The position numbers and the translations under genes were made by a program. Under the pieces are notes generated by a model, which was not told the origin of the DNA, ran no database searches, and saw only the letters and a program-made list of their open reading frames with translations. A stretch of 64,000 nt of DNA from Escherichia phage BEU42, in sequence record OM632669.1. One strand, given 5' to 3'. Below, in pieces: positions 28,489 to 62,885 of this stretch (positions within the stretch are counted from its first letter, which is position 1; each line of letters begins with the position of its first letter).

Positions 28489-31400
28489 TTAGTGGGTAAG
28501 GTTGAACCAAGGATTGAGGGTAGGTGCTCTTAGTCCTTGTCCGAAGCCTAATGAATAATCCAGTCTTCCTTCAGCCAGCATGGTTAACATGTTGTCCTGA
28601 ATTGGTAGACCTACATTACCAAACATGGCAGGAGCGGGTACTACTGTAGCAATCAGAGAATGTACTGGGTTGTTTCTAATCATGCTCATAGCAACTTTAA
28701 TGGAACGAATCTTAAAGTTGTAGAACCACATCAGACCCATGCTTTCCATATAACCACGGAAACGACCAGGCAATCTGTCATAGTTAACAAACTCTTCAGT
28801 TACTTGACCTAATGCTTCAGAAGAAGATTTTTTCTTACGTTTCACTAAATCATCATAGATGATGGCTTTAGCAATGAAGTCTGAATACTCTACTGTTTTC
28901 TGGATACCCTGGAACAGAGCAGTGTCCTTAGCAATAAGAGCATAACGGCCAGCATTACGTACTTTTTCTGGAAGTTTATTAGCAAGTTTTTCCATGTACT
29001 CATGAATCTTACCTTCAGCTACTAACAGGTCATCACGACTAATACCAGCATCAGCAATAGAAGAGAACTCACCTGCTTCAATCAAAGGCCAGATGCTCAT
29101 ACGACGATGGCTATCAGTAATAGATTGAATCTCGGTTTTAAGTTTACGAACCAGATTAGGATTGCCTTCAGCAGCACGTAATTCTGCTTCTGCATCAATC
29201 TGACGTAAACGAGATTTAATGTACTGATTAATCTCTGACGTCTTACGAGGAATGTTCACAGCAATATCCTTAACAGGAACACCACGTCCAATCATCTGGT
29301 AGATGTTAGCAAGGAAGTTAACTGCCGGTACTACAACAGATTTAACAACAATTACTGTCTTAGCATCCTTCACCAAATTCTGAATGGTATTTTCAGCATT
29401 CATTACTACATGATATGCCTTATTACCAAATGCACCGAGGAACATCTTCTTAACAGTATCAAGGGTGCTAGATGACCAACGAGAGTTACCAGTCCATACA
29501 TCACCAATAGATGCAGCACGATAGCCAAGTGCATCATTCAGCATATCCCTACGAACCCATAACTCATCTTTACCAAAGAGTTCTTCAGCCTTACGACGAG
29601 TCTCAATGTTCATCAGGTTAATTGCATCAGCCAGTACTGGGTCATCAATTTTACCTAACAGGTTTACATATTGAGATTTATTAGCATTAGAGTCTTTAAT
29701 GTCTTTCTCATACATAGCATGTAATTGCTCGATGAGAATGTCATTAAAACGTTGTGCTTTAGCCTCTTCCACCTGACGACCACGCCATACACCAACCATC
29801 TTAGCAAAATGATTGTCTTGGTTTAGATGCTTCAACATATTAGGGTCAACGGATTGCTCATAAGCAACTACCTGACCTTTGCTGTTATAAATTGGCATCA
29901 GTGGTTCACGTCCACGTTCACCTTTAGCCAGAGCTTTGGTAATACGCTCTACGGTTGGTTTGTCAGTAATACGACCAGCAACCATAGTACCTAACGTAAA
30001 GCCAGTACCAATATCCACGCCACCAGCAGTATTACGAACGTTCTGAAGAATACCTTGAGAGTATGGGGCACGGGCAGCTACTGGGCTGAAGTAATAACCT
30101 TTAGAACCAGTACGGAAACCAGTGCTTCCCTGATAAGTACCAATACGAGTAAAAGATTGGCTATTTAACTTAGCAAACTCTTTATCGTCAGCAATAATCA
30201 AATTCACACCTTGCTGGTTCTCTACAGGGATATAGCCCTTAAAGTGATTCAGCAAAGTACGGTTATCACCTTTAGCTTTACGCATCTCTTCAGTACGTTG
30301 ACCCACCATATAAGCAATGGAGAACTCCATACCTTCCACTTCTGATTGAGCCAATTCTGACAAAAGGTCGCGGTCAGACTTATTCATCAATTCCAGAGAG
30401 TACAAAGTAATGAGCTTATCAATAGCAGCTACATCTGCCACAGGACCATTAGTAATACGTTCACCTAACAAACGACTAATAGCATGGGCATTACGAAGGA
30501 GGTTATTACCTACTTCCCCTGTAATCATGTATTGAGCCAATTGCTTAGATTTCTTCTGAACCAGATTCCAGTTTCTACCTGCTTGGTTCTGAATCTCTTT
30601 TTCCAGAGTAGAGATTTCATCTTTCACTTTCTTAAATGAAGAGAGTAAATCTCTAATTTCAGCCATGCTCATAGTTTCACGTAGAACAGCTAAATCTGTT
30701 TTACCTAAACCAGTATGCATTGCAGACCACTCGGTATCAGTCAGTTTACGAGAGAACTTACCAGCAATGACTGTAGGTAAATGCTCACGGAATTGTTGAC
30801 GGTCTTGAGAAATCTGGCTCTTAACCAATTTGATTAAGTCATAGACATTGGCATTAGTCTTAGTACGGCCAACAATGTCATTAACTAAGTCATGGAAAGG
30901 TTGCCATACTTTACCCTGGTTCATAGCAGTCATAATACCCTGAGCCACTATTTCACCTTGTTTTTCAGATGCAATAGCAGCAGTCAGTTTAGCCAGATGA
31001 GCAACACCTTTAGCAGCTACATTAGAAGGGTTAGCAATTACCTTATCTGCCTTTTCAATAACAGTTTCAGATAACCGTTCAATGCTATCCGTTACGTACT
31101 GATTAGCACGGTCAATGAAATTACCGGTAGGGGTTGCTACAGCATCATAGAAAGACTCTCGTTTCAGAGCAGCAGCCATGATTGTTTCTGACAGAGCATC
31201 AATACTGTCCTGAACATTAGTAGCTTTCTGGTCACCAGCCATACGACGGTTCAGAGATTCCATTACCTGAGTGCCTGCATTGGTAAGCAGAGTATCTACA
31301 TCATTACCTAATTTCTTATCTGCTTTAGGTACAGGCATTTCTTTAATGATTGAACGTAGTTCTTCATTAACCATAGCCAGACCCAGGAATGTAGGTAACA

Positions 31401-34400
31401 GACTGGTTCTGCCTTTGGCATCTACTTCAACCAGATTAGCACCAGAGATAGTGTCATATTTCTGTTGAGCGTAGTAACGGTCAGCAGGGTTAGTACTATC
31501 AGGGTCAGCCATGAAATGTTCTACCGTAAGGTGTTTCATTACATGGGTATAAAGTTCCTGAGCACGAGCCATAGCGTGTGGGTCAATTGCAGCTTCAGTT
31601 GCTAATGCAGCAGTAACCATCTGGAATACAGATTGTTCCTGAGCAGTCATATTGAAGCCACGAGACTGAACATCACGAACCAGTCGAGTAGCACTCATTA
31701 ATGCATTAGCCACATTGCCACGACGTTCTACTTCTGTAACTGGGTCAGTACGAAGGTAATCAGTTACCAGTTTATCGAAGGTCTGATTCAACTGAGACAG
31801 ACGTTCATTGTTGCCATATGCTTTGCTATGGAACAGTGTGCCATCTTTAGCTACTGCCTGAGTTGTAGGTTGGCTACGCATCAGAATTGCAGAGTTAAAC
31901 AGCAGATTAGAGAACATATCTTCTCCCAATGCAGGAGCTTGTTTACGTCCCCAAATCAATTTCTTAATGGCCTGATAAACATCTTTCACCATTTGAACCA
32001 GTGAAGATGTTCTCTTCTGTTTAGCAGCAAGAGCACGGTTAGCTAACCCCCAAGCCATAAACTCATTAAGAGCAGCAGCTTTAGAGATAGCTGGGTCAAC
32101 AAAGCCATTACTCAAATGACCTTCAATAGTTGCAATAGCATCAGCATATGCTTCTCTCATTTCTGGAGAATCTTTGGAAATATCCAGAGAACGGAACTGT
32201 TCCATCAGACCTTCAAGGTTCTCAATAGCCTGCTTAGAAGTAGGGCTTACTTCATTACCCTGATAGAAGGAATAAACTTCCTCAAAGGTAGAAGCATGAA
32301 CCAGTTCATGAATGAGGGTTTCCATAGATGGGCTAACCAGATAAATGGTCTTATCATCGAAGTTAGTCCAGCCATAAATATTGCCTGCCTGAGCTTCTTC
32401 CATTTCCTGAGAAGTCAATTCAGTAACATTCTTCTGACGAGCATACTCTGCAACCTGAGTAGGTGTACCGTAGATAATCTTATAGTCTTTAGCTGCCAGT
32501 GATTTCTGAATCTCAGCAAGAGTAGCTGCCTGAGTAGATGGCAGATTACTAATCTTAGCCAGATTACGAATAGCAGTAGCAGACAGGATACGAACACCGG
32601 ATGCCTTATGCTCACGGCCTACCATACCAAAGTCTGGATTCACTGGTTCTTTTTCAGAAACAGTTTCTTCTTTGACTTCAGCCTTAGCCTTAGCGACTTT
32701 TTGTTTACGGGCTTCTAACTCTTCACGGAAAAGTTTATTCAGTTCATCAGCCTGTTGTTCAGGAGTCATATTGCTGAGGTCAATCTTACCGTTGTTCTGA
32801 TAAGGAGCACCTACAGCAGCCATCTGGTCAATGGACAGATTTACCTTATCCAGTACCTTATGGCGAATATCTACACCCAGTGCAATATTACGTAAGTTAC
32901 GTTCAATCAGAGATGCAGCATTAGCAATATCATCTACAGTAGCATTCTCACGTTGGTCATATTCCAGAGCAGATTTACCAATTGCTTCCAATGCTTCAGG
33001 GGACAACTTGCTGAAATCTACATTTTTCATGAACTTAGCATATGATTCGTAAACATTCTTAATAGGGTTACCCTGCCAAGAAGTGTAAACAGCTTCATTA
33101 GCCTTACGACTAGCATCAGTGATGTCATTCAAACCAATGTTCATACCATCAAAGATTTTGAGGGTATTCTTTGGTGCACCTTTCATAGTGGAAAGAGTTT
33201 GCATCATCATGCCGTCACCAGTACCAATAGTCATAAATGGAATACCTGCTACACCAGCCTGTGCTGGGGCATAGATACTCATTGGTACACGCATACGGTC
33301 ATCAAGGTTAGTAGCTAATACCTGATTTGCTACTTCTGCATTTTCTGAGCCAGCAATGTAGAAAGTCTGAGAACCAGTCTCAATCATAGGAGCTAAGTTA
33401 TTCAGAGAAGCCTGAATATCATTCAGTTCTTTCTGAGTAAGGAAATCGCCTTTCTTCCATGTCGGGTCTTTAGCCTTCTCTGTCAGTTTCTCCTGTACTC
33501 GCTGTTTGAACATATCTTCCAGCACTACAGATTGAATCTGAGTAGCTTTCTGTAATTGTTCAGTGGAGTACACCAGACTTTCACCCACAGTCTGAGTAAT
33601 ACCATTACGTAGTGGTTCTACAAAGAAGTGCAGCATATTTTCCTGAAGTGCCTTCAGTTGCTCACCCTTAATGGTATAGGTCTTAGGATTGATTTTCCCT
33701 TTGGCTCCTGCACCTGTGGATTGTAGTTCCAGTACACCTTTACGTTTAACAGGAACGGTAGAAGTCAGTGTTTCCATATCTTTCAGGAAACGAGCAAGAA
33801 GTTCTTCAGCATGTGCTTCTGAAGCAGCTTGCTTACCAAACATTGCCATAGCAGCAGAAATATTTGGGTCTTTAGCACGAGCTTTCAGCACATCGGACAT
33901 ACGCTCATAGATGGCATCAGTAACAGAACTAACCAGCTTACCTGCAATACCACGAGCACCAGAACCATAGATGGTAATAGTCAGTGGGTTCTTAGCAATA
34001 CCACGTTTAAGTTCTAAAGCACCATTCTCACCGAGATTAATATCCGGTAAGAACAAATCCATCAGAGAAAGAAGACTGTCTATCTGGGACTGAATAGGCA
34101 TATTAGAAGCGTAGTTACTACGTAACTTACCCAACGATTCCATCAAAGCATTAGTGGATGCTTGATATAAATCATTATTGTCAGCAGTAGAACGATGCTC
34201 ATTCATGGTCTTATTTGGAGAACCAATGAACAAGCCACCTTTGGCAATGTTACGAATCCAGTCAGGGGTAAACAGGCCACCTGTCATTAGCATCATGGCA
34301 TTGATTGGACCATTAGTAACACCATCTGCTTCTACATACAGTGGGGTTACAAATGCAGATTTATCCTCTGCTACTAAGTAACGGGAATACTCCATAAGAG

Positions 34401-37400: not shown

Positions 37401-38991
37401 CATCAGTTGCTTCAACAGCATCACGAATAGTAACTTCTGCTTCTGGTGCTTGAGCCATAGCTTCTTGTGCTGCCTGTGCAACATAGTCATCAGCAACAGG
37501 AGATGCTTCTTCATTCTGCTTCATAACCCGCTCACCACGAGCTACCAAAGTGTTCTTAATAGGGGAAACAACCTTACCTGCTACACTACCAGCAGCTTTA
37601 ACACCAGCCATTGTGGTACGCAATACAGGAGCAGTTGCAGCACCTGCTAAACGAGCAGCACCAGCCGGAGCCTGTACAACACCAGCAGAACCAAAGCCAT
37701 AAAGAGCACCTAAACCAGCTTGTGTACCGACACCTTTAAGCAAGTCTTGGTTCTTATCAATGTTTTGTTGCTGTGCAATATTCTGAGCCAGTTGGCCTGT
37801 AGCACCCTGAACACCTTCTTCCACTGTTTCACGGGCAAGGTTCATACCTACAGCACCTAAAGAACCAGCACGGAAAGGAGCCATCTCAAAACGAGATACC
37901 AGAGGACCAGTTGCAGCAGCAATAGGTAATTGAATAGCAGCAGCAGTAAGACCAGTTTCAGATGCAGTCTGACGACGAGCCTGTTCTGGAGACATACCAT
38001 CTTTAATATGTTGCTGATAAACAGGAGACTTCTCTAAGTCTTTAAGACTCATCTTCATAATTTCATCAGCAGTTTGTTGGTATGCACCACCAGCTTCCAT
38101 TACACCAACACCAACCATACCTGGTGCAGCTCTGCCTACAGTAGAAGCAATACGAGCCAGGGACTGAGTACCAGTACCTGCATCAATAGCACCAGCCAAT
38201 GCAGCACTACGAAGAGTATTTGCTGGAACAACTGCTTTACCCAGTAAAGATGCACCCTTTAATACAGGACCAGCACCTAATAGAGAACCTACCCCTTCTG
38301 CTAACCCATCAGAAATAATAGAGTCAGTTTGAGCAGCATTCTCAATTGAACCTACAAAATCACGTCCAAATTTAGATAAGGAAGCTACTATGTCATTAGT
38401 GCCTTCTTTCTTATCTGTTTGATACTGACGTTCACTCTCTACCTCACTCATTAAGTTACGAGCAGCGAAGAGCTTACGTTTATCTTGTAATGCTTGGCTT
38501 TGGGTAGCATGGACAGCATCATTAAACTTACTCAATTGTTGAGCAACAACAGCACCTGCGTCATCGTTGAGTAAGCCTGCCCCAAGAGCACCAATGCCCC
38601 CAAGGGTATTAACAAAACCAAGACCAACACCAGTAGCAATATCCCCCAGTTCTTCCCCAGGAGTTCTTGTAGTAACTGAATCATTGAATACCTGGTTCCC
38701 TGCATCAGCACGAGCGTTGATAAGTTGTAAGCCTTGCTCAACCCCATACTTATTCATGATTTGCATTGGAGTCAGATTCATGAAATCTGATTGCACTGTC
38801 CCTGGTTCAAATGCATTAGCCCCAACATTACCAGTACGGGCAGCTTGCATTTGATAAGCAGCATCAGGAGAAACAAGAGGAGTAGTGACACCTTGTTCAG
38901 CTTTCTTCTGGGCGGTTGCAGTAGAGACGTCAACTTGCTTTGCATTGGTTACGCTGTCTGCGAACCCAGCCAGTCTATCAAATACTGACAT
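28489..38991 (-). CDS. giant virion-encapsidated RNA polymerase (N4 vRNAP-like)
   Basis: continuous ORF over 10.5 kb; ORF track start 39009 is TTG; first ATG at 38991 has AGGAAA upstream and gives exactly 3500 aa; a protein this size is a hallmark of N4-like phages. Confidence 0.8.
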   Translation of the reverse strand: MSVFDRLAGFADSVTNAKQVDVSTATAQKKAEQGVTTPLVSPDAAYQMQAARTGNVGANAFEPGTVQSDFMNLTPMQIMNKYGVEQGLQLINARADAGNQVFNDSVTTRTPGEELGDIATGVGLGFVNTLGGIGALGAGLLNDDAGAVVAQQLSKFNDAVHATQSQALQDKRKLFAARNLMSEVESERQYQTDKKEGTNDIVASLSKFGRDFVGSIENAAQTDSIISDGLAEGVGSLLGAGPVLKGASLLGKAVVPANTLRSAALAGAIDAGTGTQSLARIASTVGRAAPGMVGVGVMEAGGAYQQTADEIMKMSLKDLEKSPVYQQHIKDGMSPEQARRQTASETGLTAAAIQLPIAAATGPLVSRFEMAPFRAGSLGAVGMNLARETVEEGVQGATGQLAQNIAQQQNIDKNQDLLKGVGTQAGLGALYGFGSAGVVQAPAGAARLAGAATAPVLRTTMAGVKAAGSVAGKVVSPIKNTLVARGERVMKQNEEASPVADDYVAQAAQEAMAQAPEAEVTIRDAVEATDATPEQKVAAHQYVSDLMNATRFNPENYQEAPEHIRNAVAGSTDQVQVIQKLADLVNTLDESNPQALMEAASYMYDAVSEFEQFINRDPAALDSIPKDSPAIELLNRYTNLTANIQNTPKVIGALNVINRMINESAQNGSLDVTEESSPQEMQNVALAAEVAPEKLNPESVNVVLKHAADGRIKLNNRQIAALQNAAAILKGAREYDAEAARLGLRPQDIVSKQIKTDESRTQEGQYSALQHANRIRSAYNSGNFELASAYLNDFMQFAQHMQNKVGALNEHLVTGDADKNKSVHYQALTADREWVRSRTGLGVNPYDTKSVKFAQQVALEAKTVADIANALASAYPELKVSHIKVTPLDSRLNAPAAEVVKAFRQGNRDVASSQPKADSVNQVKETPVTKQEPVTSTVQTKTPVSESVKTEPTTKESSPQAIKEPVNQSEKQDVNLTNEDTIKQPTESVKETETSAKESTVTEELREGIDAVYPSLVGTADSKAEGIKNYFKLSFTLPEEQKSRTVGSEAPLKDVAQALSSRARYELFTEKEVANPAFNGEVIKRYKELMEHGEGIADILRSRLAKFLNTKDVGKRFAQGTEANRWVGGKLLNIVEQDGDTFKYNEQLLQTAVLAGLQWRLTATSNTAIKDAKDVAAITGIDQALLPEGLVEQFDTGMTLTEAVSSLAQKIESYWGLSRNPNAPLGYTKGIPTAMAAEILAAFVESTDVVENIVDMSEIDPDNKKTIGLYTITELDSFDPINSFPTAIEEAVLVNPTEKMFFGDDIPPVANTQLRNPAVRNTPEQKAALKAEQATEFYVHTPMVQFYETLGKDRILELMGAGTLNKELLNDNHAKSLEGKNRSVEDSYNQLFSVIEQVRAQSEDISTVPIHYAYNMTRVGRMQMLGKYNPQSAKLVREAILPTKATLDLSNQNNEDFSAFQLGLAQALDIKVHTMTREVMSDELTKLLEGNLKPAIDMMVEFNTTGSLPENAVGVLNTALGDRKSFVALMALMEYSRYLVAEDKSAFVTPLYVEADGVTNGPINAMMLMTGGLFTPDWIRNIAKGGLFIGSPNKTMNEHRSTADNNDLYQASTNALMESLGKLRSNYASNMPIQSQIDSLLSLMDLFLPDINLGENGALELKRGIAKNPLTITIYGSGARGIAGKLVSSVTDAIYERMSDVLKARAKDPNISAAMAMFGKQAASEAHAEELLARFLKDMETLTSTVPVKRKGVLELQSTGAGAKGKINPKTYTIKGEQLKALQENMLHFFVEPLRNGITQTVGESLVYSTEQLQKATQIQSVVLEDMFKQRVQEKLTEKAKDPTWKKGDFLTQKELNDIQASLNNLAPMIETGSQTFYIAGSENAEVANQVLATNLDDRMRVPMSIYAPAQAGVAGIPFMTIGTGDGMMMQTLSTMKGAPKNTLKIFDGMNIGLNDITDASRKANEAVYTSWQGNPIKNVYESYAKFMKNVDFSKLSPEALEAIGKSALEYDQRENATVDDIANAASLIERNLRNIALGVDIRHKVLDKVNLSIDQMAAVGAPYQNNGKIDLSNMTPEQQADELNKLFREELEARKQKVAKAKAEVKEETVSEKEPVNPDFGMVGREHKASGVRILSATAIRNLAKISNLPSTQAATLAEIQKSLAAKDYKIIYGTPTQVAEYARQKNVTELTSQEMEEAQAGNIYGWTNFDDKTIYLVSPSMETLIHELVHASTFEEVYSFYQGNEVSPTSKQAIENLEGLMEQFRSLDISKDSPEMREAYADAIATIEGHLSNGFVDPAISKAAALNEFMAWGLANRALAAKQKRTSSLVQMVKDVYQAIKKLIWGRKQAPALGEDMFSNLLFNSAILMRSQPTTQAVAKDGTLFHSKAYGNNERLSQLNQTFDKLVTDYLRTDPVTEVERRGNVANALMSATRLVRDVQSRGFNMTAQEQSVFQMVTAALATEAAIDPHAMARAQELYTHVMKHLTVEHFMADPDSTNPADRYYAQQKYDTISGANLVEVDAKGRTSLLPTFLGLAMVNEELRSIIKEMPVPKADKKLGNDVDTLLTNAGTQVMESLNRRMAGDQKATNVQDSIDALSETIMAAALKRESFYDAVATPTGNFIDRANQYVTDSIERLSETVIEKADKVIANPSNVAAKGVAHLAKLTAAIASEKQGEIVAQGIMTAMNQGKVWQPFHDLVNDIVGRTKTNANVYDLIKLVKSQISQDRQQFREHLPTVIAGKFSRKLTDTEWSAMHTGLGKTDLAVLRETMSMAEIRDLLSSFKKVKDEISTLEKEIQNQAGRNWNLVQKKSKQLAQYMITGEVGNNLLRNAHAISRLLGERITNGPVADVAAIDKLITLYSLELMNKSDRDLLSELAQSEVEGMEFSIAYMVGQRTEEMRKAKGDNRTLLNHFKGYIPVENQQGVNLIIADDKEFAKLNSQSFTRIGTYQGSTGFRTGSKGYYFSPVAARAPYSQGILQNVRNTAGGVDIGTGFTLGTMVAGRITDKPTVERITKALAKGERGREPLMPIYNSKGQVVAYEQSVDPNMLKHLNQDNHFAKMVGVWRGRQVEEAKAQRFNDILIEQLHAMYEKDIKDSNANKSQYVNLLGKIDDPVLADAINLMNIETRRKAEELFGKDELWVRRDMLNDALGYRAASIGDVWTGNSRWSSSTLDTVKKMFLGAFGNKAYHVVMNAENTIQNLVKDAKTVIVVKSVVVPAVNFLANIYQMIGRGVPVKDIAVNIPRKTSEINQYIKSRLRQIDAEAELRAAEGNPNLVRKLKTEIQSITDSHRRMSIWPLIEAGEFSSIADAGISRDDLLVAEGKIHEYMEKLANKLPEKVRNAGRYALIAKDTALFQGIQKTVEYSDFIAKAIIYDDLVKRKKKSSSEALGQVTEEFVNYDRLPGRFRGYMESMGLMWFYNFKIRSIKVAMSMIRNNPVHSLIATVVPAPAMFGNVGLPIQDNMLTMLAEGRLDYSLGFGQGLRAPTLNPWFNLTH

Positions 38992-39050
38992 AGTAGGTTT
39001 CCTATACAAACTTATATCTATTAGAAATCACACTATACCTAGTGTAAGGA

Positions 39051-39074
39051 CGAGAAAAAAGCCCCGAAGGGCTT
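39051..39074 (-). terminator. rho-independent terminator (minus strand) upstream of vRNAP gene
   Basis: minus strand reads aagccc-ttcg-gggctt then TTTTTT; between stop at 39092 and vRNAP start. Confidence 0.55.
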
Positions 39075-39091
39075 TTGTATTATGGTAGAAA

Positions 39092-41026
39092 TTAACGAGG
39101 AAATATATCAGGGATACCCAATCGACGTCCGGCATCTCTGCCTAAACTTCTCCGGTTTGCCTCGCTCTCTTCCTGTTTAATATTTTGTAGGCTCTTAATA
39201 TCCAAATTCTGAGGGTCAGCAGCTACAGCACTACGAGCACCATCAAGAAGACGTTTAGCAGTATTAACTCGCTCCTGATAGCGAGGTAGTACACTTCTAA
39301 GGTTTTCCTGACCGGTCTGAATACGACGCTGTACTTCACGTAAATCAGCAAGTGCAGTATCTAACGTATTCTGTGCTGCATAGATGTTTGATTGAATTTG
39401 TGCAGTAAGCTGATTACGAGCATTCTGTTCAATAGCAGTACCAGTAGTTGCAAGTTTTGCATTTGCTTCTACGGCTGCTTTATCCAGTTGGTAATCACCA
39501 CCCAAATCAATAACATCAGTATCAAAGGCATTTCGAATACCACTAAACCATCCCTCTGGTTTACCAGTGATACTGCGTTGAATGATTGCTCCTGCCATAG
39601 CGGGAGAAATAGCATTCTGTTTTGCTACCTCATTGATTTGTCGAACCAGTGCACCTTGGTTAATGCCTTTCAGTTCATTGTTATCAATAATACGTTTAGC
39701 CACCTGACCAGTCGTAGAAGGGTCAACAGTAGCAGCTTGGTATTCAGGCAGCAGAGTATTACCAATATTCTGCATATTACGAGTACCAACAGTATTACCA
39801 GCAACAGAAGTGAATGCTTGTTCCTGTAATGGATTAATAGAATTACCTGTTTCTGCTTGAGCAATGTAATCCTTCATTTCATCCCATGACAGGTTCTTAT
39901 AAGCACCCGGAGTATCATCTGGTAAAGCAGCCCATGTACTCTTCAGATTGCCATTCTTACGAGCATTAAAAATAGCTTCACCCAGTTTGTCTTGGTTCTC
40001 CGGAGACATAGGGATGTTCTGCCAATCTTCACCAAATACCTTTGGAGCAAAGTCTTTAAGGGTATCTTGGTTAATCTGGTATGCACCAACAGGAGAAGCA
40101 CCTAGTGTCTTCTTCATAGTGTCTTGATGCTGAACCACCTGACCTAAGTTCATCTGAGTAATAGGTACATCAGTTGGTGTGAACTTATAGGTAGTGTCAT
40201 ATGCAGAACCATTCCGAGTACCCTGAGTACCAGGAGGAGATAGAGATGCAGAACCAGTTCCCGGAGTATATGCACCTGGGTATGCTCTATCTAACTGAGA
40301 TAGTGCACGACTTACTGCTCCTGGTGACATTTGGTCGAACGTACCCTCTGCAAGCATACGAGCATCGTCAGCACTGTATGCACCACGACGAATATTATTC
40401 AGTAACTGCATAGCAGCCTGAGTATCCGCATCGTTACGCATATCAACACCTAAGTTGAATAAGCTGCGACGTTGACCAATACCAGCAGTACCCTGTCCTT
40501 GAAGGTTGTTCATGTAGTCCATAACAACACCAGCAGGAAGGGTTTTTAATACGTCTCCATACTGAGCCTGTGCTGCCTGAACCTTTCTTGGGTCACCAGA
40601 TTGATAAGCCAGAGCCAATTCCTGCAATGCAGGAGCAGCAGCATCAGTAGCTGCATTTACCTTCATGGTTCTGTCATTACTGTATCGAGTGAAATCCAGA
40701 TTTTGTTGTTTAGATGCTTGGTCTAACAGATTGCCAGCACGATTATCTAAGTTCTCCATAGTACGAGAAGAAATTAGAGAAGGGTCATAGCCAGCAAATA
40801 ATGCTCCAGAAGCTAAGGCATTACGATACTCATTAGGGTCTTGGTAACGCATGGCTTCAGCCATAATTGCATCACCAGCTTGCTGTCTTGCAGAGTCTCG
40901 AAAATCACCTAATGCATTACTCAATCCGGCAGTGGCATTACCCAGCATATTGGAGAAAGTACGAATACTATCCCCAACACCAGAGAAAGAAGGAGCATCA
41001 ACATTACGCCATGTAATTTGAGCCAT
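39092..41026 (-). CDS. virion-associated protein candidate (unknown function)
   Basis: 644 aa, Q/N/A-rich; within late structural block. Confidence 0.4.
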   Translation of the reverse strand: MAQITWRNVDAPSFSGVGDSIRTFSNMLGNATAGLSNALGDFRDSARQQAGDAIMAEAMRYQDPNEYRNALASGALFAGYDPSLISSRTMENLDNRAGNLLDQASKQQNLDFTRYSNDRTMKVNAATDAAAPALQELALAYQSGDPRKVQAAQAQYGDVLKTLPAGVVMDYMNNLQGQGTAGIGQRRSLFNLGVDMRNDADTQAAMQLLNNIRRGAYSADDARMLAEGTFDQMSPGAVSRALSQLDRAYPGAYTPGTGSASLSPPGTQGTRNGSAYDTTYKFTPTDVPITQMNLGQVVQHQDTMKKTLGASPVGAYQINQDTLKDFAPKVFGEDWQNIPMSPENQDKLGEAIFNARKNGNLKSTWAALPDDTPGAYKNLSWDEMKDYIAQAETGNSINPLQEQAFTSVAGNTVGTRNMQNIGNTLLPEYQAATVDPSTTGQVAKRIIDNNELKGINQGALVRQINEVAKQNAISPAMAGAIIQRSITGKPEGWFSGIRNAFDTDVIDLGGDYQLDKAAVEANAKLATTGTAIEQNARNQLTAQIQSNIYAAQNTLDTALADLREVQRRIQTGQENLRSVLPRYQERVNTAKRLLDGARSAVAADPQNLDIKSLQNIKQEESEANRRSLGRDAGRRLGIPDIFPR

Positions 41027-41036
41027 GTGATACCTC

Positions 41037-41489
41037 TTAACGAGTTAAGCGATTAGCTGCAATGTAAGCATCAGCCGTAGATTGGTCACGATTTTCTGCA
41101 ACAGCACGACTACGAGCACGGTCTTCCAGAGCAGTGTTATAGGACTTAATCTGGTTATTCAGATTAGTGTTAGTAACATCTTTAGCAAAAGAGAACTGAC
41201 TCTTAGCTAACTTGTTAGCCTGTAATGCACCATAGATATTACCCAGTGCGTTAAGACCACCTAACCCCAACTGGAAGGTAGGAATGTTCAGACCCAGTTG
41301 GTCAGTAAGCCCTTGAGTCTGCCCACCGGTATTCCCTGTAGCACCACCAGTAATATTCTGAAGCCAATCATTACTAAGGATGCCGGATTGCATAGGGTTA
41401 TAGTTCATGGTTGGGGTATTAAAGGAACCATACCCATAGCCAAAATTGCTTTGTGCAGATGGGGTTCCAAAAAGGAAATTAGTATCCAT
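41037..41489 (-). CDS. hypothetical structural-module protein
   Basis: 150 aa; G/N/T/Q-rich. Confidence 0.4.
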   Translation of the reverse strand: MDTNFLFGTPSAQSNFGYGYGSFNTPTMNYNPMQSGILSNDWLQNITGGATGNTGGQTQGLTDQLGLNIPTFQLGLGGLNALGNIYGALQANKLAKSQFSFAKDVTNTNLNNQIKSYNTALEDRARSRAVAENRDQSTADAYIAANRLTR

Positions 41490-41502
41490 AAGGATTCTCC
41501 TG

Positions 41503-44058
41503 TTACGTATCTAAATCAAGCTGCAACGTTATATCTGCAAAGTTGGTAATCATGTTGTTAGACATGTCAGCTATATCATGACCAGTCATAAGAGTACGGT
41601 TAAGGAATGAATCCAATGGCTCAAATTGTTGGCCTACATTAGTTAGGTTCATTGGGTCAATGTAACCCATGCCCTCAGTGCCAAACATTTCCTCGTACTT
41701 TTCCTGAATGGTTTTCATCTGGTCACGGTACTCTGCCATAAGTTTCTCTGTCTTTTTGACAGTTTCCATAGCAGAAGCATTGATGTAATCACTTATGCCA
41801 TTTCCTACAGATGAAGTGAGTTTAATGATGTTATCTGCTTTCATCATTTCACCCAGCATCGTAGACATGGATGAACCAGTGGATAAAGCTGTACCAACAT
41901 TCATGGCTACCATAGAGGCAATGGTAGCAACAATGATTCCAATCTTATCCCCAAGCAGACTAACAGAGACTGTTTGAATAATGGACATCAGAATCATAGC
42001 TGCAATGGCATTAGCCACAGCCCCAACGATAATAGCAGCTAACCCTGCAAAACCTAATGCAGCACCAATAGAAGCAGCAGTACCCATTACCCCAGCACCA
42101 GCAGCAGGAGTAAAGAACACAGACACTACTACTGCAACAACAACCACTACTACTTTAAAGATGCCAGACTGATACCATTTCTTCTTAACTTTCTTATATG
42201 AGTTAAGAACCAGATAACAACATGCAGTAGATAACTGAGTACCATTTACCAAAGACATACTACGATAAATGTTGTTATGAAGAGGGATGATAAATCCGGA
42301 CTCTTCATCATCATTTAGTGCATCTACACCAGAAATGCTTACAGATTTATTCTTGTAAACATTATTGTTATGGTTCAGGCCATAGACAGAAATCTTCCTC
42401 CATGAATTATCCCCATCCTGCCAATACATTGTTATCTTATCTAGCCTGTAGATATTAAACCCAACTTTGTCATTACCCTTTTCAGAGTACATAACGGCTT
42501 TCTGCATAAGGACTACAGTACCTTCATAAGCAAACTTGAGCTGCCCTTTCTTGGCTCCAGAGAATGCTTTTCCCGAACCAACTGACTCTTCAATGAAGTT
42601 CCAACTAATAGTCATGTTGTAACGGTATCCACCGTTAGAACGAATATTAATGGATTTAGAAGGTATTGTTGGATATACGGGTCTTTTAGGGGGTTTCCCT
42701 ATGGGAATATCCCTATTACCACTACGAGATTTCCACCATTCCTGGTAGGCATCAAAGTCCCTGTTAGCCTGAGCAAAGCCTTCTACCAAAGCATCCATAG
42801 TTGGGTAGTTTGGGTCAGCAGGCATTGACTGATTCACTAACTGGAAGAACCTGTATATAATGTCAGAAATCTTACCCCCTGTAGCCTTCTTAAAGGCTTT
42901 CTTACAAAGAGTATATGTAGAACCAGAAATCCAGTTCTTATCACTACGGATAGGGATGAATGAATAGAATCTGTTATTGGTTGTTTTATTAATAAACAAA
43001 GCATCAAGAACAGCATTACCACTATTCTGTTTATAAATAAACAGTTGAGGCATACCACCAGCAGACAGAGTAGTAACTACATCTGTATTCTGATAAGACC
43101 ATGTATAACCTAAAGTATCTGTAGTTACTGTAGTAGTTCTGGTTTCAGTAACCCCACCACCTAAATCAATAACTTCAGTGTTTGTAGTGGAACCAGTAGA
43201 TACAGTACCAGTCTGTACCTGGGTCATTGTAGTCTTACGAATAATGATTAAGCCTACTTCACTTGGTTCACGAAATTCTTTCTCGTAAACATCTGAGAAG
43301 TTAGTCCAACTAACCTGTTCTTCTTCAGTATTGGTACTTTCCTCATCAGGTCTACCATCAGAGAATACACTCTTAATATGAGTAACTGTCTTCAGAGTAG
43401 CTGACTTAGGGGTATGGTTCTGAGATACCTGAGTCCATTCAGAAGTAGAAGGTAAGTCATCAGCAGATGATACAGATACAACAGGATGAACCACTGGGTC
43501 TGCAACACTAGTAGGCTGTATGTAGTAATAATTCACATACAGATACATTGCATCCTGACTGTAATTCTTTGGATAAAAGGATAACTCACTACCATCAGTA
43601 GCAGTGAGTACAATCCTGTCATCATCCATGATGTCTATTTCAAACTCTTCAGTAATACGGTCTGGATAATTCTCATAGAGGAATTTATCAGCCCATTCCT
43701 CAAAATCACCAAATCCAATCCTACTGCTCTGAACCTGTACCTCATAACCTGCTTTTTGAGGAACTTGCCATTTAACTACTTCAGGGTCTATCTGAGACAG
43801 TACTGACAAGTTCCCATAAGCAATACCAATTGAAGGGTCATAGTTAGTTGCAGCCCAACCAGGGAATCTACGTAAACGAATACCAGGTCCATTTAAATAA
43901 GAGTCAGTGATGGTATCACCCATACTAAAGTCAGATTTACTGACGATGTTACCAATCACCGTAGTCTTTAAATAATTTGGACGTTTATGTATATCCCCTG
44001 CCAAATTGTAGACAGAGGATGCTACGTAGATTTTAGTCTTACTGCTAAACAGTCCCAT
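41503..44058 (-). CDS. large virion protein with C-terminal cluster of transmembrane helices (ejection/channel protein candidate)
   Basis: 851 aa; hydrophobic run VVVVVAVVVSVFFTPAAGAGVMGTAASIGAALGFAGLAAIIVGAVANAIAAMILMSII... Confidence 0.45.
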   Translation of the reverse strand: MGLFSSKTKIYVASSVYNLAGDIHKRPNYLKTTVIGNIVSKSDFSMGDTITDSYLNGPGIRLRRFPGWAATNYDPSIGIAYGNLSVLSQIDPEVVKWQVPQKAGYEVQVQSSRIGFGDFEEWADKFLYENYPDRITEEFEIDIMDDDRIVLTATDGSELSFYPKNYSQDAMYLYVNYYYIQPTSVADPVVHPVVSVSSADDLPSTSEWTQVSQNHTPKSATLKTVTHIKSVFSDGRPDEESTNTEEEQVSWTNFSDVYEKEFREPSEVGLIIIRKTTMTQVQTGTVSTGSTTNTEVIDLGGGVTETRTTTVTTDTLGYTWSYQNTDVVTTLSAGGMPQLFIYKQNSGNAVLDALFINKTTNNRFYSFIPIRSDKNWISGSTYTLCKKAFKKATGGKISDIIYRFFQLVNQSMPADPNYPTMDALVEGFAQANRDFDAYQEWWKSRSGNRDIPIGKPPKRPVYPTIPSKSINIRSNGGYRYNMTISWNFIEESVGSGKAFSGAKKGQLKFAYEGTVVLMQKAVMYSEKGNDKVGFNIYRLDKITMYWQDGDNSWRKISVYGLNHNNNVYKNKSVSISGVDALNDDEESGFIIPLHNNIYRSMSLVNGTQLSTACCYLVLNSYKKVKKKWYQSGIFKVVVVVVAVVVSVFFTPAAGAGVMGTAASIGAALGFAGLAAIIVGAVANAIAAMILMSIIQTVSVSLLGDKIGIIVATIASMVAMNVGTALSTGSSMSTMLGEMMKADNIIKLTSSVGNGISDYINASAMETVKKTEKLMAEYRDQMKTIQEKYEEMFGTEGMGYIDPMNLTNVGQQFEPLDSFLNRTLMTGHDIADMSNNMITNFADITLQLDLDT

Positions 44059-44061
44059 GTA

Positions 44062-44970
<909 letters not shown>

Positions 44971-44980
44971 TCATTGGTTC

Positions 44981-45020
44981 ATTAAAAGAAAACGGCTCAC
45001 GGTTTTACCCAGTGAGCCGT
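44981..45020 (-). terminator. rho-independent terminator candidate (minus strand)
   Basis: 9-bp stem acggctcac/gtgagccgt with 11-nt loop; on minus strand followed by TTTTCTTTT. Confidence 0.45.
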
Positions 45021-45040
45021 GCTGACTTACAGATTAACTC

Positions 45041-62758: not shown

Positions 62759-62885
62759 AGTCTTCCTACAAATTATCTAGAGTGAAGAGGATTCTTTTCT
62801 TGGGGTTAGCACCCCTTGCAGAAACCTATACATAGATTTAGACTTTAGACTTTCTTTAGTCTCCTTACAATAGTAAGACAGAGAC

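Follow-up and report, generated by a model that had tools for sequence, protein, structure and literature searches.

A conserved three-element spacer with a terminator-type hairpin precedes the virion RNA polymerase gene of N4-type coliphages

The present work concerns a stretch of 64,000 nucleotides (nt) of Escherichia phage BEU42 (sequence record OM632669.1), called the window below, and in it the gene of a giant polymerase on the minus strand together with the spacer that precedes it. A 1.1-kb test stretch of the window, spanning the proposed start of the gene, is 100% identical to Escherichia phages BEU5, BEU13, BEU14, BEU44, and BEU51 and shows 99.2% identity to phage N4 (EF056009 / NC_008720). 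By these matches the window belongs to an N4-type coliphage (Schitoviridae, Enquatrovirus), and the giant open reading frame (ORF) is identified as N4 gene 50, which encodes the virion RNA polymerase (vRNAP). The gene is the last of the leftward late block, following gp52 and gp51, and this order agrees with the annotations of N4, KP8, and St11Ph5. Only 10 nt separate gp52 from gp51 in the window. The features of gene 50 and of the spacer between gp51 and gp50 are as follows.

28489..38991, minus strand: gene 50, vRNAP (3,500 codons plus stop, 10,503 nt)
38998..39003, minus strand: Shine-Dalgarno (SD) sequence AGGAAA, read from the sequence; its core AGGA (39003-39000) lies 8 nt before the ATG
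39007..39009, minus strand: in-frame TTG that opens the mechanically called ORF, without SD and within the invariant box; rejected as start
39007..39018, minus strand: invariant 12-nt AT-rich box GATATAAGTTTG, abutting the ribosome-binding site and containing the -10-like hexamers TATAAG (39016-39011) and TAAGTT (39014-39009)
39028..39047, minus strand: second hairpin, IR2, from the repeat search; arms ACACTA (39045-39040) and TAGTGT (39035-39030), loop GGTA
39051..39076, minus strand: rho-independent terminator-type hairpin AAAAGCCC-UUCG-GGGCUUUU, then UUCUCG, 15 nt past the gp51 stop codon
39092..41026, minus strand: gene 51 (66-kDa virion/ejection protein), the upstream neighbour

Read along the minus strand, the gp51 stop codon TAA (39094-39092) is followed by tttctaccataatac, the first hairpin AAAAGCCC-TTCG-GGGCTTTT (39076-39057), TTCTCG, and tcc. 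Next come TT-ACACTA-GGTA-TAGTGT-GA (39047-39028), tttctaata, the box GATATAAGTTTG (39018-39007), tat, the AGGA core (39003-39000), aacctact, and the ATG (38991). A preliminary description of this DNA had recognized the terminator and the SD sequence in the spacer, and both are present; IR2 and the invariant box had been overlooked.

The gene 50 protein of the window is collinear with N4 gp50 (EF056009), with 99.31% identity, 24 substitutions, and 0 indels. At the nucleotide level the gene differs from its N4 counterpart by 212 substitutions scattered along its length. The N4 gene (EF056009, AAO24831.2; PDB 9PNR, 9PNQ) and that of the window are alike in the length of 3,500 amino acids (aa), the start codon, and the absence of cysteine (0 Cys in the window product). 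The 100-nt gp51-gp50 spacer is base-for-base identical in the two phages, and the neighbours are shared, with gp51 upstream and the convergent gp49 downstream; the window phage itself is a BEU-type isolate, whose gp50 departs from that of N4 by the 24 aa substitutions. N4 gp50 is packaged in virions and transcribes early hairpin promoters (PMC4496689, PMC13434306), and with 99% identity the window product would be expected to do the same. The preliminary description had proposed a product of exactly 3500 aa, the size of the N4-type virion RNA polymerase, and the 10,503 nt collinear with N4 gp50 bear this out. The identity of the gene and its 3,500-residue product are already known biology, here correctly rediscovered.

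The mechanically called ORF covers 28489..39009 on the minus strand (3506 aa) and opens at a TTG. An ATG (38991-38989) lies in frame 6 codons downstream, and an in-frame TGA (39030-39028) lies upstream of the TTG. In the N4 record EF056009 the vRNAP coding sequence (CDS) is 34523..45025 (10,503 nt); with the alignment mapping to N4 (locus coordinate x = window 41101 - x), its first base corresponds to window 38991, and the CDS of the AL25 and Jura records start at the equivalent base. The full-length PDB chains 9PNR, 9PNT, 9PNW, 9PNQ, 9PNV, and 11GP (3,500 residues) open with MSVFDRL, which begins at residue 7 of the TTG-started ORF, and residues 7-150 of that ORF align mismatch-free to residues 1-144 of 9PNR_A (E = 3e-87). 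Recombinant vRNAP of residues 1-3500 is reported to be active in transcription (PMC13434306). Chain A of PDB 11GO (3,296 residues) has Ser2 of gp50, not Met1, as its first residue.

The relatives share this start. The sequence Met-Ser-x-Phe-Asp-Arg-Leu-Ala-Gly-Phe-Ala-Asp-Ser is kept from residue 1 in Kaypoctavirus and Gamaleyavirus, and the first seven residues (Met-Ser-x-Phe-Asp-Arg-Leu) are also kept, with the ATG, in a contig with only 35% protein identity. Nucleotide changes are mostly synonymous after the ATG and mostly non-synonymous in the six codons from TTG to ATG. Translation of gene 50 almost certainly starts at ATG 38991. The preliminary description had preferred this codon to TTG 39009 and had placed the SD sequence AGGAAA before it; the choice matches the N4 reference annotation and PDB residue 1, and the SD sequence is there. 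The TTG start appears to be an artefact of mechanical ORF calling, with six extra codons that are non-coding by all the above indications. The ATG is the start of the published N4 gp50 annotation and is not a new result. In several GenBank records the vRNAP gene is mislabelled, as 'DNA polymerase', 'translation initiation factor 2', or 'gram positive anchor domain protein'.

Spacers between gp51 and gp50 were gathered from GenBank phages and viral contigs, which gave 19 distinct sequences from Enquatrovirus, Kaypoctavirus, and Gamaleyavirus. The third codon positions of the first 100 vRNAP codons served as the neutral yardstick; they are 48-57% identical between genera, near saturation. Judged from these sequences, a spacer of about 100 nt with a terminator, a drifting hairpin, and an invariant box, in this order, is kept throughout the N4 / KP8 / G7C branch (Enquatrovirinae). 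AGGAA upstream of the gene 50 ATG is invariant in all of the sequences.

The first element is the inverted repeat AAAAGCCC/GGGCTTTT, with arms at 39069-39076 and 39057-39064 and a 4-nt loop, followed by TTCTCG on the minus strand; the repeat search agrees. Its RNA is co-oriented with gp51 and has an 8-bp stem (4 G-C and 4 A-U pairs) with a UUCG loop. The folding energy is -11.2 kcal/mol for the hairpin alone and -12.8 kcal/mol with 61 nt of context (z = -2.7, an equally good fold being reached by 4 of 200 shuffles), and about -11 kcal/mol is in the usual range for E. coli intrinsic terminators. Six consecutive U (39060-39055), four of them within the stem, are followed by CU, and this U-tract is kept in all 19 sequences. 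The block of hairpin and T-tract shows 78-100% identity between genera, compared with 48-57% at third codon positions. In most lineages the loop is UUCG, UACG, or UCCG, all of the C-G-closed UNCG tetraloop class, and this holds on the minus (sense) strand only; in the St11Ph5 group an AUCC or AUAC loop caps a 5-GC stem. A 'terminator' feature is already annotated at this site in OW991345 and LR999871, and in the distant relative L032 another GC hairpin, followed by TTTTCTTTT, occupies the same place ahead of the vRNAP gene.

By its sequence, the gp51-gp50 hairpin has every feature of an intrinsic terminator, and it is under selection. A rho-independent terminator had been described on the minus strand between the upstream late gene and the gene 50 start, at 39051-39074; the hairpin lies there, the earlier position being about 2 nt off at the 5' side, and its terminator character, with all features present and conserved, stands as a prediction. 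With canonical E. coli intrinsic terminators it shares the GC-rich stem, the stable UUCG tetraloop, the U6 tract, the sense orientation, and the position 15 nt past the stop codon. It differs from them in a 4-bp GC core and in an A-U stem extension that uses part of the U-tract, and ordinary terminators lack the second conserved hairpin and the invariant box that follow it. Counted among such terminators here are the leaky ones between the cistrons of phage late operons (T7-type attenuation; LUZ7, ONT-cappable-seq, PMC9163698).

IR2, the second element, evolves differently. Its region is only 47-62% identical between genera, a neutral-like rate, with the pairing always kept. All lineages form the hairpin (z -2.5 to -4.7), with loops of 4-8 nt and at least 4 different stem sequences: ACACTA/TAGTGT in N4, CACACT/AGTGTG in KP8, TTCACT/AGTGAA in St11Ph5, CTCACT/AGTGAG in locus L028, TCACTA/TAGTGA in locus L029, and GCTTACT/AGTAAGC in PGN829.1. 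Bp4 and Moonfish have G-T or T-G pairs. This pattern reads as the signature of a stem-loop whose pairing is preserved by compensatory changes. Because the loop lengths differ, MAFFT misaligns the 5' arms between genera, out of register, and RNAalifold recovers only 5 pairs; folding of each sequence was used instead. The sense RNA is the more stable in N4 and in the PGN/Bp4/Moonfish group (G-U pairs), whereas in the KP8 and St11Ph5 groups the antisense has a slight advantage; neither strand is clearly favoured.

Three readings of this part of the spacer were considered and set aside. IR2 as a dimer operator was rejected, since its half-sites would be spaced variably, by 4-8 nt, and lack a conserved sequence. 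The reading as a hairpin promoter of N4 vRNAP was likewise rejected: those promoters have GC-rich stems of 5-7 bp with 3-nt loops, whereas IR2 is AT-rich with loops of 4-8 nt. Sequestration of the SD sequence, through pairing of UUUCUA after IR2 with UAGGAA in a single-sequence fold, was dropped, as the consensus fold of the 19 sequences gives no support for it.

The third element, the box GATATAAGTTTG, is 100% identical in all 19 sequences. The motif block as a whole shows 83-95% identity between N4 and the other genera and up to 100% within Gamaleyavirus, compared with 48-57% at codon position 3. The 17-18 nt around the box (AATAGATATAAGTTTGWA) resemble the stretch directly upstream of gp69, the first leftward late gene, in three genera. 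Two related copies stand elsewhere in the window.

62765..62782, minus strand: related motif copy CTCTAGATAATTTGTAGG, directly upstream of gp69, in the window and in N4
26386..26397, plus strand: third copy of the motif, GATAAGTTTGTA, some 20 nt ahead of the tRNA cluster (tRNA-Asn)

Upstream of gp69 the relatives have AATAGACATAACTTTGTAG or ...TTTATAG, and the KP8 group has AATAGACATAACTTTATAG. In 12 Gamaleyavirus contigs the motif at this place is TTAATAGACATAACTTTGTAG, essentially invariant, with one single-base variant, GATATAAC. The third copy GATAAGTTTGTA was not found in the examined stretches of KP8 and St11Ph5. The pattern T-A-W-N-T-T covers every copy (TAAGTT, TAACTT, TAAATT, TATATT, TAATTT); the -12, -11, and -7 positions, the most important ones of a sigma-70 -10 hexamer, are kept, with variation between them. 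In the box itself, TAAGTT (39014-39009) has the -12 T, the -11 A, and the -7 T. At gp69 the motif stands anywhere from about 4 to 23 nt ahead of the ATG, and it is therefore not merely the context of a ribosome-binding site. The box may be a candidate gp50-specific late promoter or an RNA processing site.

Some further sequences related to the box or to the gp69 region were observed. At 41524-41535 (minus strand), GATATAACGTTG differs from the box at 2 positions and falls within the gp53 3' end, some 35 nt ahead of the gp52 start codon; this copy at the head of the gp52-gp51-gp50 trio may be a chance occurrence. The distant contigs L032, L052, and L054 are without GATATAAGTTTG and have CTCTTATAGGA, CTCTATATATAGAGA, or TCTATATATAGGA directly before the SD sequence of the vRNAP or gp69 homologue; in two cases these AT-rich tracts come right after a GC hairpin and T-tract. 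In the divergent region ahead of gp69, at 62765-62885 (minus strand), several blocks are kept across three genera and are candidates for the late promoter: GACTAAAGT (possible -10, TAAAGT), the ATAAsTTTGTAG motif, and a hairpin GGGGT..ACCCC with CAAG...AAGAAAAGAATC on its flanks. The box is unlikely to be an RNAPII middle promoter of the minimal AT-rich kind (-7 to +2), since those belong to the left half of the genome and lie on the opposite strand, and since no further copies of the motif precede middle genes.

The explanation that best accounts for the locus overall, and one we consider well supported, is that the gene is N4 gene 50, that it starts at the ATG, and that it is preceded by a three-element spacer with a predicted terminator. 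The leftward late block from gp69 to gp50 is transcribed by host sigma-70 RNA polymerase. In the proposed mechanism, the terminator would stop a fraction of the polymerases arriving from gp52-gp51, so that the 10.5-kb gene 50 is transcribed less. The rest of the gp50 mRNA would derive from read-through, from a weak activator-dependent promoter with its -10 in the invariant box, or from both. From the features of the spacer we infer termination, its efficiency, and any promoter activity; the gene, its start, and the conserved elements are read directly. N4 virions contain 4 +/- 1 copies of vRNAP and 12 each of gp51 and gp52 (PMC13434306), and a partial terminator ahead of gene 50 would fit this ratio.

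The preliminary description had gone from the terminator to a separate regulation of the polymerase gene. As drawn there, this conclusion is plausible and goes beyond the evidence. Beyond the terminator lies the conserved -10-like box, which would be consistent with a promoter belonging to gene 50 itself and plausibly lends separate regulation some support. The late promoters of N4, which are used by the E. coli sigma-70 holoenzyme with N4SSB (Cho et al. 1995, cited in PMC4496689), are the nearest model. They have been described as only remotely sigma-70-like (PMC9163698) and as N4SSB-dependent (PMC4496689), and the box likewise lies on the late (leftward) strand and has a -10-like hexamer and no recognisable -35. 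The gp69 upstream region that it resembles is itself only a predicted late promoter site, and the predicted leader at the candidate box is very short.

A fuller version of this proposal can be put forward only tentatively, and we would not rely on it. In it the spacer is a branch-specific regulatory cassette that splits the 'ejection operon' of Schitoviridae: the terminator would block read-through, GATATAAGTTTG, recurring ahead of the first late gene and of the tRNA cluster, would be the core of an N4SSB-dependent late promoter (T-A-W-N-T-T, no -35), gene 50 would have its own transcription unit, and the covarying hairpin would be part of the switch.

A number of observations weigh against separate control of gene 50 through a terminator and a promoter. 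The terminator scan of 27.5-42 kb does not list the gp51-gp50 hairpin, and terminator-like sites occur there at chance level (9 found, 9.4 expected). The scan rule requires 5 or more T among the 8 nt that follow the maximal stem, and the hairpin was missed because only 4 of the 8 bases after its maximally extended stem are T; with matches at chance level, the evidence for the hairpin is therefore its conservation and not pattern matching. The GC part of the stem is just 4 bp, and termination may be weak as a result. Most of the terminators mapped in LUZ7, an N4-like phage, are leaky (ONT-cappable-seq, PMC9163698); no transcription unit in the LUZ7 long-read data includes the 10-kb vRNAP gene. 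In the Pseudomonas phage DEV the three ejection genes, including that of vRNAP, are co-transcribed (PMC11445570).

On the promoter side, the sigma-70 promoter scan of 27.5-42 kb gives no match in the spacer and no recognisable -35. Of the two hexamers, TATAAG matches at 5 of 6 positions and lacks the -7 T, and if TAAGTT were the -10, the predicted transcript would begin at or inside the SD sequence, and its leader would be unusually short. Genome-wide, the degenerate core ATAA(N)TTT(G/A)NA is found 6 times, compared with 6.8 expected from shuffles, and is not enriched; GATATAAGTTTG with at most 2 mismatches gives 7 matches, compared with 8.5 expected, again without enrichment. The shared-motif argument is therefore one of position and cross-genus conservation. 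IR2 has no role in the promoter model, and a literature search found no mapping of transcript 5' or 3' ends for the N4 gp51-gp50 junction. As a separate observation, sigma-70-like promoter matches are strongly depleted over 27500-42000 (10 found, compared with 31.2 +/- 5.5 in dinucleotide shuffles).

The box may instead be an RNA element, at which read-through transcripts are cut, for example by RNase E at AAG/UUUG (the slash marking the cut), leaving IR2 as a 3' protective stem and releasing a short-leader gp50 mRNA. The cleavage preference of RNase E is a loose RN/WUU, which AAG/UUUG fits. IR2, which evolves like a pure stem-loop, would gain a role here, unlike in the promoter model; the box is single-stranded, AU-rich, and invariant in sequence; and the lack of a -35 element and of a sigma-70 scan match would be natural. 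In distant lineages (L054) the AT-rich tract is moreover so near the SD sequence that a promoter there would yield a near-leaderless mRNA. Against this, the motif also stands upstream of gp69, the first leftward gene, where there is no upstream cistron and a promoter is needed. The variation among the copies keeps exactly the -12, -11, and -7 positions, and matches to the RNase E consensus are very frequent by chance. We give processing at the box a fairly low probability, and as a reading of the box it stands about level with a promoter.

A further alternative gives the GC hairpin no appreciable termination; it would be a stabilizer of mRNA 3' or 5' ends or a decay barrier, and gp52-gp51-gp50 would form one operon as in DEV. 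There, gp73-gp72-gp71 were found co-transcribed by reverse transcription PCR (RT-PCR), and 191 Schitoviridae have been proposed to carry such a three-gene ejection operon (PMC11445570). Substantial read-through occurs at more than 60% of the LUZ7 termination sites, the late-strand intergenic hairpins at about 45705, 53890, and 58080 are without U-tract, and the GC stem of the gp51-gp50 hairpin has only 4 bp. However, the U6 tract at the stem is conserved in all lineages, and RT-PCR picks up any read-through, so that partial termination is compatible with the DEV result. The DEV genes agree with those of N4 in order (small membrane protein, ~65-kDa tunnel protein, vRNAP) and in lying on one strand, but gp72 and the vRNAP gene, the last two, abut without a spacer (54822 and 54821), whereas the N4 / KP8 / G7C branch has a terminator-bearing cassette of about 100 nt between gp51 and gp50. 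A junction of 0 nt without a hairpin is uninformative on N4, and DEV co-transcription therefore does not bear on the N4 branch. A single operon with an inert hairpin seems rather improbable to us.

It is very improbable that the A-tract, hairpin, and T-tract act chiefly on the plus strand, halting rightward (antisense) middle transcription before the late region. An AAAA on one side is mirrored by TTTT on the other, which makes the element almost symmetric, and it folds on the plus strand at -10.8 kcal/mol, compared with -11.2 kcal/mol; the AL25 and Jura records put the terminator feature on the strand opposite the gene, and Watson-strand transcripts of LUZ7 span the whole genome in mid-infection (PMC9163698). 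Nevertheless, all four plus-strand Ts lie in the stem, the tail that follows (GTATTATGG; GUAUUAUGG) is a poor U-tract, the loop variation stays in the UNCG class only on the minus strand, and the U6 tract with its pyrimidine tail is conserved on that strand only.

Translation from TTG 39009 to a 3,506-aa product is hardly credible: the codon is permitted in bacteria, an in-frame TTG is kept in all relatives, and one automated record (BaqKoxi) likewise sets the start upstream of the ATG, but no SD sequence precedes the TTG, its conservation is explained as part of the non-coding invariant box, the six intervening codons vary mostly non-synonymously and enclose the AGGA SD, the N4 reference, the other curated records, and the PDB depositions use the ATG, and protein conservation begins only at Met1. 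In the BaqKoxi record the vRNAP CDS is begun 51 nt too far upstream, at a TTG in the loop of the second hairpin.

Other hairpins and a tRNA cluster were also noted in the window. One hairpin lies at the other end of gene 50.

28463..28480, no strand assigned: hairpin GCCCCTCTAGTGAGGGGC, in the gap where gene 50 and gp49 converge; reported by the terminator scan for each strand

It has a perfect 7-bp GC stem with T-rich tails on both strands and looks like a bidirectional terminator closing gene 50. Among the intergenic GC-rich hairpins of the late block (minus strand), those after gp55 (about 45020) and after gp64 (about 52545) have a canonical U-tract, and those at about 45705, 53890, and 58080 do not. 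All five are followed by an SD sequence and ATG within 10-25 nt; there is room for extra elements only in the gp51-gp50 gap, which does hold such elements. Taken as a set, the five hairpins suggest a stepwise attenuation or stabilisation of the late mRNA. Four tRNA genes (Asn-GTT, Ser-TGA, Thr-TGT, Pro-TGG) lie between gp47 and gp48 at 26418-27096 (plus strand), and an Rfam search found only these four tRNAs. Over the stretch matching this cluster, the N4 reference record has CDS features only.

The new material is the comparative anatomy of the gp51-gp50 spacer alone. For annotation, it is of note that the mechanical ORF track makes N4 gene 50 six codons too long. The cassette is also relevant to phage engineering, for example the tagging or replacement of vRNAP without upsetting gp51 expression. 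The three spacer elements are absent from Pseudomonas N4-like phages, in which the genes abut. Should the box prove to be a promoter, it would give access by sequence to the N4SSB-dependent late promoters, which are poorly described, and it would explain why a virion contains about 4 copies of the polymerase and 12 of each neighbouring ejection protein.

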